Below, in pieces: positions 18,463 to 42,548 of a DNA stretch of 64,000 nt. The stretch comes from an uncultured Candidatus Rokubacteria bacterium. GTDB lineage: Bacteria; Methylomirabilota; Methylomirabilia; Rokubacteriales; CSP1-6. The stretch lies in assembly GCA_963776725.1 (NCBI GenBank), contig CAVZOE010000007.1:127592-191591 (forward strand). The letters run 5' to 3'. The position numbers and the translations under genes were made by a program. A model generated the notes under the pieces. The model had not been told where the DNA came from. It searched no databases and was given only the letters and a program-made list of their open reading frames with translations. Numbering within the stretch: position 1 is the stretch's first letter; every line of letters starts with the position of its first letter.

Positions 18463-18540
18463 GGTGACCGTAGCTCAATTGGTTAGAGCACTGGCCTGTG
18501 GAGCCGGGGGTTGTGGGTTCGATTCCCATCGGTCACCCCA
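18463..18540 (+). tRNA. tRNA-His (anticodon GTG) with G-1 and an encoded CCA.
   Basis: Manual cloverleaf: acceptor GTGACCG/CGGTCAC, anticodon loop CTGTGGA, T-loop TTCGATT, 3' CCCA. Confidence 0.85.
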
Positions 18541-18563
18541 ACCGAAACGGAGGGTCGTGGCGG

Positions 18564-18640
18564 GCGCCCGTAGCTCAGTTGGATAGAGCGTTGGCCTCCG
18601 AAGCCAAAGGCCAGAGGTTCGATTCCTCTCGGGCGCACCA
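18564..18640 (+). tRNA. tRNA-Arg (anticodon CCG).
   Basis: Near-identical in outline to E. coli tRNA-Arg(CCG): GCGCCCGTAGCTCAGTTGGATAGAGCG...CTCCGAA...GGTTCGATTCC...CGGGCGCACCA. Confidence 0.85.
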
Positions 18641-18658
18641 CTGGATGGAGCAGGTGTT

Positions 18659-18734
<76 letters not shown>

Positions 18735-32832: not shown

Positions 32833-33065
32833 CACCAGAGACCTCCTTCTGGCTCGAGGATCTCGCGCCGCGCGACGTCCGTCCAATGCATAAACCTGAC
32901 CCCACCCATCAGCGATGGTGATGCATTGGGGCGTACACACCTCACCTGCGGCATCGGCGCCTCAGCGCTCGCACCCGGCGAGTGATTCAAGCGATTGATT
33001 CTAGATGGGTCCATCCTGGTACGTGCGGTGCACCTGCGGCGCCGGGGATTTCCAAGGAGAGCGCA

Positions 33066-34505
33066 ATGACGCGACTCGTCTGGCTGGTGCTGATTGTGTT
33101 CCTGGCCGCGTGCGATGGGCGCACGCCGAAAGTCTCGGATCCGTACGACCCGGCGAGGATGGACCTCAAGCCGAAGCCAGCGCGCGTGACGAACACGGCG
33201 GGGACGGGACCCTTTGCCGCGGGGAACGCGCTGTCGACGACGGTGGTGCTGAAGCCACTCGATCCGGCGCCGGTCAAGGAGGTCCGGCTCGACACGGTCC
33301 ACAAGGTCATCGAGATCGCGCCCGGGGTGAAGTTCAGCGCGTGGACGTTCGGCGGCCAGGTGCCCGGACCCACGGTCCGCGCGCGCGTCGGGGACCGTAT
33401 CCGGTTCACGATGACGAATCGTACCGCCGAGACCCTGCCCGGCGTCAGCCTGACGGCCGCGCCGATGATGCACTCGATGGACTTTCATGCCGCGATGGTG
33501 TCGCCCCAGGACAAGTACCGGTCGATCGCGCCGGGGCAGACGATCGAGTTCGAGTTCACGCTGAACTACCCGGGCGTGTTCATGTACCACTGCGGAACGC
33601 CAATGATCCTCGAGCACATCGCCTCGGGGATGTATGGCGCGGTCGTGGTCGAGCCGGCGACCGGCTACCCGACGAAGGTCGATCGCGAGTACGTCATCGT
33701 CCAGAGTGAGTTCTACACCAAGCCTGATCCCGAGCGCCGCAAGGCGGACGGCGTACCGCTTCACGTCCTCGATGGCGCCCGTCTGCGGGCGTCGCAGCCG
33801 ACCTACACGCTGTTCAACGGCGTGCACAACGGGATGGTGAAGCAGCCGCTCGCGGCGAAGGCGGGCGAGCGGGTACGACTGTACGTCCTCAACGTGGGAC
33901 CGAGCAAGACGTCGAGCTTCCACGTGGTCGGAACGATCTTCGACCGGGTATGGATGGAGGGCAACCCCGACAACCAGTTCCGCGGGATGCAGACCGTACT
34001 GCTGGGCTCGTCGAACAGCGCGATCGTGGAGTTCATGATCCCCGAGGACGGCGCCTACATCATGGTGGATCACCACTTTGCCAACGCCTCCCAGGGCGCC
34101 ATCGGGCTCATCTCGACGACGGCGAAGCCGGCCGAGGCCGATCTCGAACACCACAACATCCCGGCCACGCCGGTGCCCAGTGATCCTGGCGCCCTGCAGG
34201 GGAAGCTCGACTTCGAGAGCAAGTGCCTGGCGTGTCACTCCGTCGGCCAGGGCCGAAAGCTCGGCCCCGATCTGGCCGGCGTGACCAAGCGGCGGAATGA
34301 CGCGTGGCTGTCGCGCTGGCTGAAGTCGCCCGAGAAGATGCTGGAAACGGATGCCGACGCCAAGGCCATGCTGAAGGAGTACAACAACCTCCCGATGCCG
34401 AACCAGAGCCTCTCGGACGCCGAGGTCCGCCAGTACTTGCAGTACTTCCACTGGATCGATGCCCAGCCTACGGGTACGGTGACCTCCAGTGGCGCCGGGC
34501 ACTGA
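33066..34505 (+). CDS. nirK: Copper-containing nitrite reductase NirK with a C-terminal mono-haem cytochrome c domain; lipoprotein signal.
   Basis: Lipobox LAAC. Type-2 Cu motif HSMDFHAA. Type-1 Cu motif YHCGT...ILEHIASGMYG (C-x7-H-x4-M). C-terminal CLACHS haem site. ATG 33066 with AGGAGA RBS. Confidence 0.85.
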   Translation: MTRLVWLVLIVFLAACDGRTPKVSDPYDPARMDLKPKPARVTNTAGTGPFAAGNALSTTVVLKPLDPAPVKEVRLDTVHKVIEIAPGVKFSAWTFGGQVPGPTVRARVGDRIRFTMTNRTAETLPGVSLTAAPMMHSMDFHAAMVSPQDKYRSIAPGQTIEFEFTLNYPGVFMYHCGTPMILEHIASGMYGAVVVEPATGYPTKVDREYVIVQSEFYTKPDPERRKADGVPLHVLDGARLRASQPTYTLFNGVHNGMVKQPLAAKAGERVRLYVLNVGPSKTSSFHVVGTIFDRVWMEGNPDNQFRGMQTVLLGSSNSAIVEFMIPEDGAYIMVDHHFANASQGAIGLISTTAKPAEADLEHHNIPATPVPSDPGALQGKLDFESKCLACHSVGQGRKLGPDLAGVTKRRNDAWLSRWLKSPEKMLETDADAKAMLKEYNNLPMPNQSLSDAEVRQYLQYFHWIDAQPTGTVTSSGAGH

Positions 34506-35896: not shown

Positions 35897-37357
35897 ATGA
35901 CTCGACATCGGGGTCGATACGTGGGAATCGTGTTGGTTCTTGCCGCGCTGGCTGGCGGCTGGCTCGATACCTCGCCAGCGCGTGGACAGAGCGGTGACCG
36001 GCAGCGCGTGTCGGTCTTCACGGCCGACAACGAGTCGGGCGCGGCCCAGACGATCAGCGTGAACGGCGGACCGGTGGTGGACGAGGCCAACCCGTTCTTT
36101 CTGGACCTCGGCATCAACGGCCGTCGCTGCGTGACCTGCCATCAGCCCGGTGAAAACATGACGGTGAGCGCGGCGGGCCTTCAGGACCGCTTCCGCGCCA
36201 CCCGCGGGACGGACCCGATCTTCCGCACGAACGACGGGTCGAACTCGCCGCTGGCCGACGTCTCGACCACTGACGCGCGCCGTGCGGCGTACAGCATGCT
36301 GCTGCGCAAGGGCGTGATCCGCGTCGGTCTCTCCATCCCGACCACCGCCGAGTTCGAGCTCGTGGCGGTCCGCGACCCGTACGGCTACGCGGGCCACAAC
36401 GCCAACAACAACGAGCTCTCGCTCTTTCGCCGCCCGCTGCCGGCGACCAACCTGGGCTTCCTCAGCACGGTGATGTGGGACGGCCGCGAGACGCTTCAGA
36501 GGGGATCGGCGGCGGCGATTCACTTCGATCTCGACGACCAGGCCAACAGCGCCACGCAGGGCCACGCCCAGGCGCCCAGCCCGATCGACCAGGCCACGCG
36601 GGATGCGATCTTCGAATTCGAGACGGGGTTGTTCACCGCCCAGATCTTCGACAACCGGGCGGGCAAGCTCGATTCCGGCGGCGCCGAGGGTGGTCCGGAC
36701 TCGCTCTCCCTGCAGCCGTTCGTCTTCGGGGCCAACGATCCGCTCGGCTGCGACGTCAACGGGGCCAACTGCAATCCGGCGAACGCGGTATTCGACCCCA
36801 TCGTCTACACCGAGTTCGACGCCTGGGCGGGCCTGAGCGGCACCGACCGCAATCGGGCCCGCGCCTCCGTGGCGCGGGGCCAGGCCCTCTTCAATACGTT
36901 GCCGATCCCGATCAGAAACGTGGGCGGCATCAACGACGATTTCAAGGTTCCGGTCGTCATGGGAACCTGCACGACCTGCCACGACACCCCGCACGCCGGC
37001 GACCACTCGGTGCCGGCGCCGCTCAACATCGGCATCGCCGACCCGCCGGCCCGCGATGGCCTGAACGCCTTTGGGCTTCCAGTCGGTGACATGCCCGTCT
37101 ACAAGCTGCGGAACAAGACGACGGGCGAGATCAAGATCGTGACCGATCCCGGGCGGGCGCTCATCACCGGCTTGTGGAAGGACGTGGGGCGCTTCAAGGG
37201 CCCGATCCTGCGCGGGCTGGTCGGCCGGGCGCCGTACTTCCACAACGGCTCGGCCACCACCCTGGCCGACGCCGTGAACTTCTACGACGTGCGCTTCGCC
37301 CTCAACCTGACCCAGCGTCAGAAGGACGACCTGGTCGCCTTCCTCCACTCGCTCTAG
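35897..37357 (+). CDS. Di-haem cytochrome c peroxidase-like protein (CCP/MauG superfamily), secreted.
   Basis: Signal peptide and two CxxCH motifs (CVTCHQ, CTTCHD). Confidence 0.65.
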   Translation: MTRHRGRYVGIVLVLAALAGGWLDTSPARGQSGDRQRVSVFTADNESGAAQTISVNGGPVVDEANPFFLDLGINGRRCVTCHQPGENMTVSAAGLQDRFRATRGTDPIFRTNDGSNSPLADVSTTDARRAAYSMLLRKGVIRVGLSIPTTAEFELVAVRDPYGYAGHNANNNELSLFRRPLPATNLGFLSTVMWDGRETLQRGSAAAIHFDLDDQANSATQGHAQAPSPIDQATRDAIFEFETGLFTAQIFDNRAGKLDSGGAEGGPDSLSLQPFVFGANDPLGCDVNGANCNPANAVFDPIVYTEFDAWAGLSGTDRNRARASVARGQALFNTLPIPIRNVGGINDDFKVPVVMGTCTTCHDTPHAGDHSVPAPLNIGIADPPARDGLNAFGLPVGDMPVYKLRNKTTGEIKIVTDPGRALITGLWKDVGRFKGPILRGLVGRAPYFHNGSATTLADAVNFYDVRFALNLTQRQKDDLVAFLHSL

Positions 37358-37364
37358 TTCTCGT

Positions 37365-37403
37365 GGCCGCCGGCCGCCTCATCATCCGATGGGGCGGCCG
37401 GCG
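37365..37403. terminator. Bidirectional terminator hairpin between convergent genes.
   Basis: GGCCGCCGGCCGCC...GGGCGGCCGGCG GC-rich inverted repeat. Confidence 0.45.
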
Positions 37404-37408
37404 ACTCT

Positions 37409-39010
37409 TCACGGATTCGCCGCGAGGAACGCGCGCGCCTCCGCCGTCTCCGGCCGCGGGCTCCCCTGACCAGCCAGCTTCACGAGCGCGGTGAAGTACT
37501 GCTTGGCCTTCGCCTTGTCGCCGCTCCGGGCGGCCGCGGTGGCGGCGCCGTAGTAGCCGCGGTAGCGCTCGGGCTCGCGCAGCTGCGAGGTCTCGAACTC
37601 CTTCAGCGCCTCGGCGGGGCGCTTCTGCTCCAGCAGCATCTCGCCCAGCAGCTCGCGCGCGGGCAGCAGGCGGGCGGGGGTGACGATGTGCTTCTCGCTC
37701 TTGTCCTCGATGTCCGCCGCGCGGCGCATGAGGCCGAGCGCCTCGTCGGCCTTGCCCTGTGCGTGCGCCGCCCAGGCCGCGGTGGCCAGCCGGCTCACCT
37801 CGATCTCGGTGGCCCAGTACTCGCTCTTCGCCGTCTTCATGGCGTCGCGCAGCCGCCCCAGCTCCTCGGCCTCCTTGTCCGCCGCCGCGGCGTTCCCGGT
37901 GCGTGCGGCGCCGAGCCCGCGGGCGAAGTACGTCATGGCGACGGTGAAGGGAAACTGGCTCGGCCGGGGCTCGAGGGTCATCGCCTGCTTCCAGTCACCG
38001 CGCTCGACCGCATAGCGCGCCGGTATCGCTGCCTGGGCGTAGGGGCCGGCGAAGCGCATGGAGGCACCGGTGACGGCCGCGGCCGTCTCGACCATCCGGC
38101 TCGCATCGGTGTCACGGGCGAGCTGTAGCTCGGCGTACACCATGTAGTCCATGGCGTGCAGCTGCTCGTCGATGTCCTTTTCCTGCTTGGCCGCTTCCGC
38201 CGAGCGCTCGTTGGTGGCGATCGACTCGCTCCACGAGCCGACGCGCGTGAAGATATGCGAGGGCATGTGCAGTGCGTGGGGCGCCGACGGCGCGATGCCC
38301 GCATAGCGTCGCGCCGCCGGCAGTCCCTTGGAGGCGATGGGCGGGGCGTCGTAGCTGTGGATCAGATAGTGCGCGACGCCGGGATGGTCCGGATACTTGG
38401 CGAACTCCTTCTCGAGGATTTCGGTCGCCTTGAGATAGGTCGCGTAGGTCTGATCGGCGAGCGATTGCGTGGCGGCCAGGTAGAGCGCGTAGAAGATCTG
38501 CGCCTCGTCGTCGTTGGGATAGCGCGCGGCCAGCGCCTCGAACGCCTTGGCCCGGTTGGCCTGACGCGTGCGCTCGGGCCGGTTGGCCCAGTCCTCGTAG
38601 TAGGCGGCCACGGCCTCGATGTAGTCGCGCTCGCGCGGGGTCTTCGCTCCGATCTTTCGCCCCTCGTCGATGGCCGCCTGCGCGCGCTGGGCCCCTTGCG
38701 GTGAAGACCCGACGCCGGCGAGCGGATTGGACATCAGGAGCGCGGCGATGCCCCACGTCGCGATCGCGCAGGACGGATCCTGGGCCAGCACCTCGCGAAA
38801 GGCCTTCTCCCCCTCGCCGTAGCGGAAGGAGTGCAGCATGGCGACGGAGCGCTGGAAGTTGGCCTGCACCGCGGGGCCGCAGGAGTTCTGGAAATTCACC
38901 GTGCCGAGCTGATCGGTGGACTGGCCCTGGGCCGGCCGACCCGGCGTGATGAGCAGAACGGAGAGCACGAAGGCGAGCAACGCCCAAGCAATGGTGCGGT
39001 ATGTGTTCAT
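37409..39010 (-). CDS. Secreted TPR-repeat protein.
   Basis: Signal peptide MNTYRTIAWALLAFVLSVLL, then TPR-like helical repeats. Confidence 0.6.
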   Translation of the reverse strand: MNTYRTIAWALLAFVLSVLLITPGRPAQGQSTDQLGTVNFQNSCGPAVQANFQRSVAMLHSFRYGEGEKAFREVLAQDPSCAIATWGIAALLMSNPLAGVGSSPQGAQRAQAAIDEGRKIGAKTPRERDYIEAVAAYYEDWANRPERTRQANRAKAFEALAARYPNDDEAQIFYALYLAATQSLADQTYATYLKATEILEKEFAKYPDHPGVAHYLIHSYDAPPIASKGLPAARRYAGIAPSAPHALHMPSHIFTRVGSWSESIATNERSAEAAKQEKDIDEQLHAMDYMVYAELQLARDTDASRMVETAAAVTGASMRFAGPYAQAAIPARYAVERGDWKQAMTLEPRPSQFPFTVAMTYFARGLGAARTGNAAAADKEAEELGRLRDAMKTAKSEYWATEIEVSRLATAAWAAHAQGKADEALGLMRRAADIEDKSEKHIVTPARLLPARELLGEMLLEQKRPAEALKEFETSQLREPERYRGYYGAATAAARSGDKAKAKQYFTALVKLAGQGSPRPETAEARAFLAANP

Positions 39011-39231
39011 TCTGACTCCTCGTGTGACGGTGGCGTCCACGGTGCTGGCTGCGGGTGACCCACGTGCCCGCCGCTAGCCCTGAGAGCACTTACCATGGCA
39101 CTGAATCCTGGCCAATTCCACCGCCTCTCCCTTTTTGGCGTGTCGGGGATTCCCCCACTATCCATGAGGGCAGCGGCAGGGTACAAGCGGCACGAGAGCG
39201 TCGTCGCGGGATACCCGGGGCGGAGGAGACC

Positions 39232-40530
39232 ATGGCACGAGCGGCCGGCACGAAACCGAAGCAATGGACCATCATGGTCTACCTCGCCGGTGACAACAAT
39301 CTCGATAGCGCCGGCGTCGCCGATCTCGCCGAGATGAAATCCGTCGGGTCCACCGACCAGGTCACGATCGTCGCGCAGTTCGACCGATCCGGCCGCAACA
39401 GTGTGACCAATCGGTACCTTCTCCGGAAGGGAACGACACTCGCCGAGGACCTCGTCACCGCGCTCGGGGAAACCAACACTGGCGATCCCGCCGTCCTCGC
39501 CGATTTCGTCACGTGGGCCGTCACCACGTATCCGGCCCGGCGCTACATGCTGGTGATCTGGAATCACGGCTCCGGGTGGGACGACTCCAACCTCTACCAG
39601 GACACCTACTTCAGTGGGGCGGCGCCACCCGTGATCCGGAAGGGCCGGGTGATCAGCGCTGCACGTTCGGCCACCCCGATCGAGCCGGTCCGGATGGGCA
39701 CGGCGCGGGCGGCGGTCAAGCGTGCCCGTCGCGCCCTGTTTCAGCCCACGGTCATCTCCATGGTGTCGTCCCGGGCCATCGCGTTCGACGATCAGGCCAA
39801 GGACTTCCTCGACAACATCGAGCTCAAGCGGGTGCTCACCGGCATCCGCCGGCGCCTCGAGCAGAAGATCGACATCCTCGGATTCGACGCGTGTCTGATG
39901 AGCATGGTGGAGGTCGCGTACCAGATCCGCGACTCGGTCAACCTGACATGTGGGTCCGAGGAGGAAGAGCCCGGCGACGGCTGGCCGTACGACACGATCC
40001 TGAAATCACTCACCGCCCGTCCCTCGATGACGCCGCCCGACCTGGCCAAGGTGATCGTGGATCGATACCTGGCGTCGTACAAGCCGCGCGATGGAGTCAC
40101 CCTGGCCGCCGCGAATCTGGCGGGCATCGGACCGCTCGTGGACGCGGTCAATCAGCTCGGCCGCGCGCTCACCCCCCTGCTCACCGATGCCGGCGCCCGC
40201 AGCACGGTCATCGCTCTTCGATCACAGGTCCAGGAGTACACCGCGCCGTACGACCAGTACTGTGACCTCGCGGATCTCTGCGATCTGCTGGTCGAGCGAG
40301 TCGCCAATCCTGGCCTCGGGCGGGCGTGTCAGACGGTCCACGCCGCTCTCGGCAAGGTCATCATCGCCAGCGGGGCCAAGGGCCCCCGCGTCGCGCATTC
40401 GCACGGGATCTCCGTCTATTTCCCCAAGAAGACCGTGTCACCCCTGTACTCGACCCTGGACTTTGCGAAGCGACGCGGATGGGCCGCCTTCATCGATGCC
40501 TACGTCCGGAGCGTGGGACGGCGCCGCTAG
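39232..40530 (+). CDS. Clostripain-family (peptidase C11) cysteine peptidase, cytoplasmic.
   Basis: WTIMVYLAGDNNLD. Catalytic His in VIWNHGSGW and Cys in GFDACLMS. GGAGGAG RBS before ATG 39232. No signal peptide. Confidence 0.8.
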   Translation: MARAAGTKPKQWTIMVYLAGDNNLDSAGVADLAEMKSVGSTDQVTIVAQFDRSGRNSVTNRYLLRKGTTLAEDLVTALGETNTGDPAVLADFVTWAVTTYPARRYMLVIWNHGSGWDDSNLYQDTYFSGAAPPVIRKGRVISAARSATPIEPVRMGTARAAVKRARRALFQPTVISMVSSRAIAFDDQAKDFLDNIELKRVLTGIRRRLEQKIDILGFDACLMSMVEVAYQIRDSVNLTCGSEEEEPGDGWPYDTILKSLTARPSMTPPDLAKVIVDRYLASYKPRDGVTLAAANLAGIGPLVDAVNQLGRALTPLLTDAGARSTVIALRSQVQEYTAPYDQYCDLADLCDLLVERVANPGLGRACQTVHAALGKVIIASGAKGPRVAHSHGISVYFPKKTVSPLYSTLDFAKRRGWAAFIDAYVRSVGRRR

Positions 40531-40567
40531 CGCACATGCCTGTGCCACCCCGAGGAGGAGACGCGCG

Positions 40568-42355
40568 ATGCCTGATCACCTGTCCATCCTGTGCGTGCAT
40601 GGCATCGGCCATGGTGATGTCGATCCAGCGCTGATCCCGTCCTGGCGCGACGCGATCACCGCCGATCTGCAGCGCTGGAAGCCGGGCCTGGCGGTCGACT
40701 TCAGCTTCCTCAGCTACGACGACGAATTCGACCACGCCCCGCTCAATGCCCTCACGTACGCGGAGGCGGTGGCCAAGCTGGCGGCTAGCGGGATCGTCCA
40801 CGGTATCGGTGACCTGCTGCCGGGCGCCCGCGGGATCTTCGATTTCCCGGACGAGGTCCGCTGGACGGCCGGGATGATCGCCCAGTGGGCGACCGAGGAG
40901 CGTCTGCGGGCGCGACTCCGGACCAAGGTGCTCGACGCGCTGGCGACCGCGCGGGCCGACGTGGTCTGTGCGCACAGTCTGGGCTCGCTCGTCTGCTACG
41001 ACGCCTTCCAGCGCAGCCGCGGCGCGCTGGCCGATCGCGCCCTGGTGACGCTCGGGTCCCAGATCGGCAACCCGTTTGTGCGGGACTGCTTCGCCGGCCG
41101 CATCGAGCCGCTCGGCGCGCGCATGTGGTACCACCTCTTCAATCCTGACGATCGCGTGTTCACCGCCGCGCTGCGCGTCGAGGCGACGAACTTCGTTCAG
41201 ATCGAGGCGAAGTTCGACCGGCCCAATGACATCCTGAACCATGATCCGATCTGGTATTTCAATCATGCCAACAGCCAGAACCGGGTGTGGCTGGATCTCT
41301 CGGGGGTCCGGCCGCCACGGGCGCTGACCCGCGACGTCCGGACCACCCGGGTGTTGCAGTCTCGACCGAGCCGCCGCGCGCTCCTCGTCGGCATCAACGC
41401 GTATCCGAATCCGGCCAACCGGCTCGAGGGTTGTGTGAACGACGTGTTCCTGATGAGCGCGGTCCTGCAGGAGTGTGGCTTCGAGCCGGAAGAGATCCGC
41501 GTGGTGCTCGACGAGCGGGCGACGACCACCAACATCCTGGAACGCTTCCACTGGCTCCTCGATGAGGTGAAAGACGGCGACGAGCGCGTGCTGTTCTACT
41601 CCGGCCACGGCGCCCAGATTCCCGCTTACGGCGCCCACGAGGAGATCGACCATCTCAACGAGTGCCTGGTACCCTACGATTTCGACTGGAGTCCCGATCA
41701 CGCGATCACCGACAAGCAGTTCGTGACGTTCTACAGCCAGCTGCCCTACCGGAGCCAGTTCGCGGCCATCTTCGATTGCTGTCACTCCGGCGGGCTCACG
41801 CGGGAGGGCGGGATGCGCCCGCGCGGCATCGACCCGCCCGACGACATCCGCCATCGGGCGCTCCGGTGGAACCTCGCGCTCGAGATGTGGGAAGAACGCC
41901 CGCTGCCGTCGCCGAATCGTTCGCTCGCCCAGTCACGCGTCGGCCCCGAGTATCTCGGCACGAGCGGCGCCACCTTCCGCATCGGTCGCGCCGTCGGGCT
42001 GCGCGGCCTGCCAAACCGGGTCTACGACCGCGAGTGCGCGGCGCTGGGACATCGTGGCCCTTACCTGCCGATCATCGTCGAGGCGTGCCAGGAACAGGAG
42101 CTCTCGTACGAATACCGCGACGGCGCGACGTCGTACGGCGCCTTCACGTACAGCCTGGCCAAGGAGCTCCGGCGCTCCCGGCAGGCCGGACGCAACCCGA
42201 GCTTCCGGACGCTCGTGCGATTGACCACCGATCGACTTCACGCGCTCAACTACGAGCAGACACCGACCCTCGTCGGCCCGGCGGCCCTTCTGGGTCAGCC
42301 CATCCCCTGGATCGCGCAGCGGCCGACGCCCCGGGCCGTGCGCCGGCGGTCCTAG
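40568..42355 (+). CDS. Fusion protein: N-terminal alpha/beta-hydrolase (GxSxG esterase/lipase-like) plus C-terminal caspase/metacaspase (peptidase C14) domain.
   Basis: Esterase motifs ILCVHGIGHGD and CAHSLGS. Caspase His in FYSGHGAQ and Cys in FDCCHSGG. GAGGAGGAG RBS, 37 nt after the C11 gene stop. Confidence 0.8.
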   Translation: MPDHLSILCVHGIGHGDVDPALIPSWRDAITADLQRWKPGLAVDFSFLSYDDEFDHAPLNALTYAEAVAKLAASGIVHGIGDLLPGARGIFDFPDEVRWTAGMIAQWATEERLRARLRTKVLDALATARADVVCAHSLGSLVCYDAFQRSRGALADRALVTLGSQIGNPFVRDCFAGRIEPLGARMWYHLFNPDDRVFTAALRVEATNFVQIEAKFDRPNDILNHDPIWYFNHANSQNRVWLDLSGVRPPRALTRDVRTTRVLQSRPSRRALLVGINAYPNPANRLEGCVNDVFLMSAVLQECGFEPEEIRVVLDERATTTNILERFHWLLDEVKDGDERVLFYSGHGAQIPAYGAHEEIDHLNECLVPYDFDWSPDHAITDKQFVTFYSQLPYRSQFAAIFDCCHSGGLTREGGMRPRGIDPPDDIRHRALRWNLALEMWEERPLPSPNRSLAQSRVGPEYLGTSGATFRIGRAVGLRGLPNRVYDRECAALGHRGPYLPIIVEACQEQELSYEYRDGATSYGAFTYSLAKELRRSRQAGRNPSFRTLVRLTTDRLHALNYEQTPTLVGPAALLGQPIPWIAQRPTPRAVRRRS

Positions 42356-42406
42356 CGAGTTCCCTTCATCCGAGCGCCGACCGCCGTAGTATCGTGGCGA
42401 CGCGAT

Positions 42407-42548
42407 GCGGGTCGGCGTGGATCTCCTCAACCTCGGGACCGGCGTGGGCCGGACTCGCTGGCGGCCTGCATCGCCGGCGAGGGGGGGCTCGGCCAGACAA
42501 CGATCATGAAGATGAAGAAGCTCGACATCGACGTGCTGAAGCGAGCCT
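42407..42548 (+). pseudogene. Small ORF, possibly frameshifted at a G7 homopolymer.
   Basis: MRVGVDLLNLGTGVGRT... in one frame and ...IAGEGGLGQTTIMKMKKLDIDVLKRA* in another, joined across GGGGGGG at about 42456-42462. Confidence 0.25.

Follow-up and report, generated by a model that had tools for sequence, protein, structure and literature searches.

A cytoplasmic clostripain-family (C11) peptidase gene beside an alpha/beta-hydrolase–metacaspase fusion in a Rokubacteria contig: a possible two-gene conflict module

The stretch of DNA analysed here (the window) comprises 64,000 nucleotides (nt) of contig CAVZOE010000007.1 (positions 127,592 to 191,591, forward strand) from assembly GCA_963776725.1 of an uncultured Candidatus Rokubacteria bacterium, and its GC content is about 69%. 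We investigated a locus at which a gene for a clostripain-family peptidase (Peptidase_C11; hereafter C11) is followed by a gene that fuses an alpha/beta-hydrolase to a metacaspase (hereafter the fusion), a pair that may represent a cell-death or conflict effector with an optional protease partner. Three genes were delimited from mechanically called open reading frames (ORFs) and inspection of the start sites. The C11 gene spans 39232-40530 on the plus strand and encodes a predicted cytoplasmic protein of 432 amino acids (aa), preceded by the ribosome-binding site GGAGGAG; the fusion gene, with GAGGAGGAG as its ribosome-binding site, spans 40568-42355 on the same strand, encodes 595 aa and starts exactly 37 nt after the C11 stop; and a tetratricopeptide-repeat (TPR) gene of 533 aa, with the signal-peptide-like N-terminus MNTYRTIAWALLAFVLSVLLITPGRPAQGQ, lies at 37409-39010 on the minus strand, divergent from C11. 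These ORFs, coordinates, ribosome-binding sites and the 37-nt spacing agree with a previous description of the locus made from the letters alone (the sequence-only reading). The C11 start codon agrees with the N-termini found in homologues and with a database protein, P0121, that is identical over its 432 aa, and both genes of the pair were also called on a short Logan contig. The nearest relatives are metagenome-assembled genomes labelled Methylomirabilota or 'uncultured delta proteobacterium'. The divergent intergenic region upstream of C11 (39011-39231) is presumed from its position to be the promoter region of a two-gene operon; a promoter and terminator scan returned nothing, with no sigma-70-like site in this region, and its DNA is not conserved among related loci.

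The C11 product matched Pfam PF03415 with 174 bits (cut-off 25.8; E 8e-51), and its profile matched clostripain (9cip) and PmC11-type structures, while the NCBIfam clostripain equivalog TIGR02806 gave 60.3 bits against a cut-off of 550. Judged by these scores, the protein is a member of family C11 and not a clostripain orthologue. Conservation and alignment to clostripain identify the catalytic His112 (39565-39567) and Cys221 (39892-39894), which fall in the motifs NHGSGW and FDACLM, and Asp219 (39886-39888), two residues before the Cys, is the presumed S1 residue; all three positions are invariant across 93 C11 homologues. Between the His and the Cys there is an insertion of about 100 residues, which is conserved as an Arg/Lys-rich segment (PPV-RK, RA..R.RRALF) and includes R136-K137 (39637-39642, plus strand like the preceding codons). 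Clostripain and PmC11 are auto-processed in the loop between His and Cys, which we take to be this same region. The window's protein thus has in common with these two enzymes (MEROPS C11) the PF03415 domain, the His-Cys dyad, the Asp two residues before the Cys and the activation loop, but it has a far longer His-Cys insertion and a genetic linkage to caspase-fold proteins, it falls far under the equivalog cut-off, and it is cytoplasmic, without a signal peptide. Its homologues, of about 429-432 aa, are also devoid of signal peptides. No N-terminal hydrophobic signal was found in C11 or in the fusion, and the first beta-strand starts no more than about 12 residues into the protein, which bears out the earlier statement that neither has a signal peptide.

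The N-terminal part of the fusion, residues 1-262 (40568-41353, plus strand), corresponds to a lipase/esterase-like alpha/beta-hydrolase domain. The nucleophile Ser137 (40976-40978) sits in an AHS137LGS elbow between strand 132-136 and helix 138-149, Asp195 (41150-41152) follows strand 186-191, His225 (41240-41242) follows strand 209-213, and the oxyanion HG is found at residues 11-12 (40598-40603), all on the plus strand. S137, D195, H225 and G12 are invariant in 84 fusion homologues, and H11 is kept in 82 of the 84. On strand order and invariance for the triad, and with lipase-like proteins as best match, the domain is of the alpha/beta-hydrolase fold, and the GxSxG hydrolase proposed from the letters turns out to have an intact, invariant Ser-Asp-His triad. 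Residues 1-268 matched no family in Pfam, NCBIfam or PADLOC at threshold; for the Pfam families Hydrolase_4, Abhydrolase_1/6/8, DUF676, PGAP1, Lipase_3 and DDHD, what matches there were stayed below threshold (E 0.006-0.09) and concerned a few of 17 members, and a sequence-profile search of the PDB with this domain returned solely a spurious ATP-synthase delta match. The structural neighbours of the domain include acyl-protein thioesterases, deacylases and carboxylesterases. Compared with the DDHD domain of intracellular phospholipase A1 type (Nir2 DDHD, PDB 9jyx), the identity is 13%, with no Pfam DDHD match at threshold; Nir2 DDHD is catalytically dead, whereas the fusion's hydrolase domain retains Ser-Asp-His.

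When 1.84 billion representatives were searched with an N-domain profile, 918 cluster representatives matched, and Pfam scans of nine of the longer ones placed the hydrolase-C14 core after a PF04185 phosphoesterase (the phospholipase C/AcpA family), before PLDc_2, or together with FAD-binding/ALO domains. Proteins of 1,050-1,380 aa that contain the hydrolase-metacaspase core along with domains of phospholipase C (PLC) type (PF04185), phospholipase D (PLD)-like or FAD-binding/ALO domains are P0272, P0319, P0328, P0287, P0276 and P0378. Since the hydrolase is fused to PLC-type and PLD-like domains, a phospholipid-directed activity is favoured, and the domain is most likely, as far as fold and fusion partners tell, a phospholipase or esterase acting on membrane lipid.

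The two domains are joined by an Arg-rich linker (residues about 245-268, end portion at 41354-41371, plus strand) of low predicted local distance difference test score (pLDDT); it holds R251 and R255 and is the least conserved stretch of the fusion, with a basic residue kept at 251 (R/K in 78 of 84 homologues) and at 255. Residues 269-595 (41372-42355, plus strand) constitute the metacaspase (Peptidase_C14) domain, with PF00656 matching residues 269-569 at 95 bits (cut-off 21.4; E 7e-27), so that the assignments to C11 and C14 made from the letters both proved right, with Pfam matches above the cut-offs. The motifs SGHG and DCCHSGG which had been pointed out in the fusion are present, like the two in C11, and the GxSxG of the hydrolase reads AHSLGS. 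The catalytic residues are His347 (41606-41608) and Cys405 (41780-41782), Cys405 being taken as the nucleophile because it aligns with the mutated catalytic position of AtMC9 and TbMCA2, and the S1 residue is Asp403 (41774-41776). A conserved basic loop after the Cys carries R412, R419, R428 and R430 (41801-41857, plus strand as for the catalytic codons). H347, D403, C404, C405, R412, R419, D425, D426 and H429 are invariant in the 84 homologues and R428 and R430 nearly so; the predicted conservation of the His/Cys dyads is in this way borne out in both proteins. The Asp of D-x-C-H-S-G underlies Arg/Lys specificity in metacaspases, and with an invariant acidic S1 residue (D403) and a motif that aligns with AtMC9 and TbMCA2 the fusion's metacaspase is, by alignment, of the Arg/Lys type.

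AtMC9, TbMCA2, AtMC4 and Yca1 are also the closest solved structures to the caspase domain (E 2e-22 to 1e-14). With these type II and type I metacaspases (MEROPS C14B) the fusion has in common the His-Cys dyad and D-x-C-H-S-G, and with the type II enzymes a long linker between the p20-like and p10-like parts, whose sequence is unrelated. In contrast, their N-terminal extension is proline-rich or an LSD1 zinc-finger, while that of the fusion is a catalytic alpha/beta-hydrolase and the protein is bacterial. The NCBIfam model NF047832 (EACC1-associated caspase) scored 38.9 bits against its threshold of 140. Residues 406-500 (window 41783-42067), between the p20-like and p10-like parts, have low pLDDT yet are among the most conserved of the protein; they may act as a loop for autoinhibition or cleavage, or as a site of binding that folds only with a partner. 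Inside this segment lies the invariant motif R-x(6)-R-G-x(2)-P-P-D-D-x-R-H-R. P418 was considered as a residue specific to C11-linked fusions (top column, 68% vs 0%); it is confounded by phylogeny and was not used.

Databases hold more than 1,800 full-length homologues of the fusion, at present annotated only as 'caspase family protein', and among 185,579 species, each represented by a single genome, a pattern scan located at least 276 loci that match. The taxa include Methylomirabilota, Nitrospirota, Acidobacteriota, Chloroflexota, Burkholderiales, Bradyrhizobium, Pseudomonas, Geomonas, Planctomycetota and Verrucomicrobiota, with 47-85% identity over the whole length, and among the hosts are the culturable Pseudomonas, Bradyrhizobium, Cupriavidus and Geomonas. 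The distribution is patchy and resembles that of horizontal gene transfer, with 60-85% identity between phyla and flanks that are not shared. In six loci, including Bradyrhizobium (L004, L006, L039, L042, L044, L046), the region matched by tblastn exceeds the 595 aa of the fusion by 200-290 residues, which suggests extra N- or C-terminal domains.

In order to examine the linkage of the two genes, 80 genome loci were surveyed from the side of the fusion and 80 metagenome loci from the side of C11. Ten of the 80 genome loci, from several phyla, have a C11 gene adjacent to the fusion on the same strand; either order occurs, with C11 upstream in L001, L002, L003, L013 and L061, and downstream in L032, L035, L036, L037 and L040. 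The pair recurs in Methylomirabilota-like, Acidobacteriota, Burkholderiales and Verrucomicrobiota lineages, and no gene family other than C11 recurs beside the fusion in the 80 loci. From the other side, all nine metagenome loci whose C11 is at least 65% identical to that of the window have the fusion immediately downstream. The co-location noticed in the window is therefore seen in other genomes as well, and it is clear that the two genes travel together from lineage to lineage. The pair is not an obligate one, since C11 stands beside the fusion in only those 10 of 80 loci, or in five of the 57 with at least 1.5 kb on both sides of the fusion. The fusion is rather the core unit, self-sufficient in most genomes carrying it; about 90% of fusions are without an adjacent C11, so that C11 cannot be an obligate activator. 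In L090 (8053-10115) and L100 (1598-3354) the fusion is split over two frames, one for the hydrolase and one for the caspase, beside an intact C11, which reflects either pseudogenisation or an assembly frameshift.

The rest of the C11 clade keeps comparable company. In 18-19 loci it occurs with large proteins in which alpha/beta-hydrolase domains (LCAT, PGAP1 or DUF7379) are joined to a CHAT protease, 12 of these directly downstream of C11, and in L127 and L160 with another kind of hydrolase-C14 fusion, which in one of the two includes Amidase_2. When the C11 loci are restricted to the 28 with 2 kb or more on each side, 15 have a partner that combines an alpha/beta-hydrolase and a caspase fold; such partners represent three unrelated architectures, interleaved on a neighbour-joining tree of C11. 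Comparison of the hydrolase domains of the window's fusion, of L127/L160 and of the giant protein of L088 by hhalign, hmmsearch and blastp found only the nucleophile elbow in common. Because C11 is paired with hydrolase-caspase architectures that are not homologous, the association is one between three activities (C11, alpha/beta-hydrolase, caspase fold), and this argues strongly against chance.

The same C11 clade, at 56-59% identity, is found in multi-gene islands of Geobacter-like genomes (L081 3072-7290; L085 6148-15233; L088 6445-15290; L104, L107, L112) together with a SIR2 gene that hits the Thoeris ThsA models at E 2e-22, an NTPase of the nSTAND1 type, TIR-patatin, and a patatin whose match is to the phospholipase effectors of CBASS (E 5e-47). 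The link to conflict systems drawn in the sequence-only reading thereby gained ground, with C11 homologues found among immune-type genes. The gene order of these islands is variable, and they also encode a small protein beside the CBASS-type patatin and giant alpha/beta-hydrolase-CHAT-TPR-S proteins. The contexts of more distant C11 homologues are mixed, either conflict-like (KAP NTPase-Macro, AAA+/eCIS_core) or housekeeping (PFK, M1 peptidase). One such homologue (46-47% identity), in L141 (5661-10673), lies between AAA+/winged-helix and eCIS_core (DUF4157) proteins, which are usual companions of contractile-injection-system toxins. As read from alignments and gene neighbourhoods, there are thus three intact catalytic centres, a cytoplasmic location of both proteins, a genetic linkage and an immune-type company of homologues.

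Caspase-like proteases have lately become known as bacterial immune executioners in gasdermin systems, type III CRISPR and type IV Thoeris. At the window's locus, a search with PADLOC-DB v2 returned only the generic 'caspase' model PDLC02987 on the fusion and nothing on C11 or TPR, in line with the earlier statement that this is no described defence system. No TIR, SAVED-CHAT or cas genes are present in the window flanks, as type IV Thoeris or type III CRISPR would have, and TIR-patatin and SIR2 genes are found only beside distant C11 homologues. As to a gasdermin, no recurrent third gene accompanies the pair in related loci and the flanks are otherwise identified, with no gasdermin-specific model run. 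Among the papers searched, no description was found of a C11–caspase or C11–CHAT pairing or of this hydrolase-metacaspase fusion; the list of Asplund-Samuelsson et al. (2012) has Amidase_2-metacaspases but no hydrolase domain.

The closest precedent is in the VMAP (vWA-MoxR) ternary conflict systems, where caspase domains always have a neighbouring alpha/beta-hydrolase and the authors proposed that the enzymes operate together (Kaur, Burroughs, Iyer & Aravind 2020, eLife; PMC7159879). The coupling of a caspase-superfamily peptidase with an alpha/beta-hydrolase is common to both, but in the window a single compact protein of 595 aa contains both hydrolase and caspase, genes for vWA, MoxR, VMAP or an NTPase are absent from its vicinity and do not recur in the 80 fusion loci, and a C11 peptidase partner goes unmentioned in PMC7159879. 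The hydrolase-metacaspase protein can be regarded as a fused, stand-alone form of the theme described there. What is new is the C11 link and the fused stand-alone form; the alpha/beta-hydrolase–caspase logic was in part anticipated. A cascade between clan-CD proteases also has precedents: caspase-like effectors of bacteria cleave promiscuously with a specificity for Arg, and a cascade from CHAT to PCaspase is known (bioRxiv 10.1101/2024.10.24.620036); in this type III-B CRISPR case SAVED-CHAT acts on PCaspase, so that one clan-CD protease activates another (see also bioRxiv 10.1101/2023.06.23.546230). The likeness to SAVED-CHAT/PCaspase and to the TIR-caspase of type IV Thoeris would lie in intracellular, clan-CD, Arg-specific and promiscuous executioners; the upstream protease there is CHAT and here would be C11, and the presumed executioner here has in addition a lipase-like domain.

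The neighbouring genes do not take part in this association. The sequence-only reading had placed the secreted TPR protein in the module and mentioned a tiny downstream ORF. For TPR, the signal peptide is plausible, but in 165 related loci the gene does not once accompany the pair, and it was rejected as a module member: its family stands on its own, with over 8,000 close homologues located in other contexts, whose best 120 matches are 73-92% identical and which some sources call 'predicted Zn-dependent protease'. The closest TPR contig, L176, ends 34 nt short of the position where C11 would be. The tiny ORF is a mechanical ORF only, is not conserved and is likewise missing beside the pair in the 165 loci. 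TPR, the di-haem cytochrome c, LuxR, the intergenic DNA and every other ORF in 30000-52000 are absent from all related loci. An inserted module had been suggested as well, but a recent insertion of the pair is not borne out: a repeat search found no direct or inverted repeats flanking it, its overall GC content is close to that of the neighbours, its GC content at third codon positions is 0.85-0.87 against 0.87-0.91 for them, and no empty site was found. Plasmids yielded no full-length fusion and only distant C11 matches, and viral contigs no fusion and one C11 at 26% identity.

The flanking genes scanned with Pfam were nirK-cyt c, cupin, LuxR, di-haem cytochrome c and TPR, and the downstream flank, judged from translations only, consists of DNA-ligase-like and ABC-transporter ORFs. 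A single gene at 32982-34505 encodes a copper nitrite-reductase-like multicopper oxidase with a C-terminal cytochrome c domain, and a MauG/MbnH-like gene of the di-haem cytochrome c peroxidase family is located at 35897-37357; between the two lie the cupin gene and the LuxR-type regulator gene. The convergent cytochrome c and TPR genes are separated by a 16-bp GC-rich inverted repeat with a 4-nt loop (37368-37403), which is probably a bidirectional terminator without a T-tract. Elsewhere in the window, a cluster of three tRNA genes (His-GTG, Arg-CCG, Lys-CTT) is found at 18464-18734 on the plus strand, and Rfam returned nothing besides it.

Our interpretation, which we hold tentatively and as quite possible, is that the pair consists of a zymogen-like cell-death or conflict effector, the fusion, and of C11 as an initiator or amplifier protease, optional because most fusions are without an adjacent C11. 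The fusion would be made as an inactive zymogen and switched on by limited proteolysis at a conserved Arg, either in the loop after the catalytic Cys (R412/R419/R428/R430), in the interdomain linker, or in both, the cleavage being performed by the fusion itself or by C11. C11, predicted to be Arg/Lys-specific and with an Arg/Lys-rich activation loop of its own, would cleave the fusion or be cleaved by it. The active fusion would then harm the cell that makes it, by cutting proteins promiscuously after Arg and by hydrolysing lipids, and the outcome could be abortive infection, programmed death or another conflict response. The sequence-only reading had likewise suggested a cascade that would release a lipase. 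Several observations weigh against this. For an immune gene the fusion shows unusually strong conservation (mean column identity 72% in 26 homologues), with no recognisable sensor domain or hypervariable region; its neighbourhoods, at the window and in the stand-alone loci, are ordinary metabolic or motility genes and not defence islands; PADLOC detects no system at the locus; thioesterases and deacylases are among the nearest small esterases, the lipid substrate resting on the fold and the fusion partners only; and the lack of an adjacent C11 in about 90% of fusion genes counts here too.

Alternatively, the fusion could be a physiological, non-immune enzyme. It might remodel or turn over membrane lipids in a regulated way, bring about autolysis under stress or in stationary phase, or couple the deacylation of proteins to proteolysis, with C11 as no more than an occasional maturation or accessory protease. 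PLC-type phosphoesterases serve in some bacteria for lipid remodelling under phosphate starvation. The very high conservation across phyla without a variable sensor, the stand-alone copies beside housekeeping genes, the fusion of the core to PLC-type phosphoesterases and FAD/ALO oxidase domains, and the acyl-protein thioesterases and carboxylesterases among the structural neighbours all point that way. We nevertheless consider it unlikely, as a housekeeping function does not predict the patchy and rare distribution, no metabolic neighbour is conserved in the 80 loci, the partner C11 clade is repeatedly found among SIR2, nSTAND1, patatin, TIR and CHAT genes, and the characterised bacterial caspase-like proteases are death or immune effectors. 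That the two genes are unrelated, brought together by chance or by shared horizontal transfer only, is in our view very improbable: the scarcity of C11 beside fusion genes and the presence of distant C11 homologues beside PFK and M1 peptidase speak for it, but the same-strand pairing recurs in both orders and in four lineages with no other gene in common, and the C11 clade pairs with three non-homologous hydrolase-caspase architectures.

Granted a functional link, its sign could also be opposite. C11 would then be an antitoxin-like negative regulator that silences the fusion by continuously degrading or trimming it or its activating fragment, and its loss or inhibition, for example by an invader, would free the fusion. 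The tight coupling with C11 first in the window's lineage would suit such a role, as would the frameshifted fusions beside an intact C11 in L090 and L100, and with both enzymes predicted to be Arg/Lys-specific C11 could cleave the Arg-rich loops of the fusion. Most fusions, however, tolerate the absence of an adjacent C11, the gene order is reversed in several lineages, and clan-CD proteases are generally better known as activators by limited proteolysis, which makes this improbable. Hardly credible, finally, is a set of secreted or digestive proteases and lipase for nutrition or virulence, of the clostripain kind; clostripain and PmC11 are indeed secreted or surface enzymes and a secreted TPR protein is encoded next door, but no signal peptide is present in either protein or in any homologue examined, the TPR gene never accompanies the pair, and the clostripain equivalog model gave 60 bits vs 550.

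A wider generalisation could be entertained, doubtful as it is at present: cytoplasmic C11s would be the initiators of a widespread, undescribed class of death modules, in which an Arg-specific C11 activates an executioner made of a caspase fold (C14/CHAT) and a membrane-attacking hydrolase, a set assembled independently at least three times, with the 595-aa fusion as its minimal, sensor-less form. The system is small, with two genes and five catalytic residues, and the hypothesis is therefore directly testable. Whatever its function, the fusion defines a compact and very widespread family that joins a metacaspase to a lipase-like hydrolase unrecognised by any curated domain model. Its recurrent pairing with C11 gives C11 enzymes, so far known as secreted, a possible role in intracellular signalling and suggests a two-tier cascade of clan-CD proteases, analogous to that of initiator and executioner caspases.

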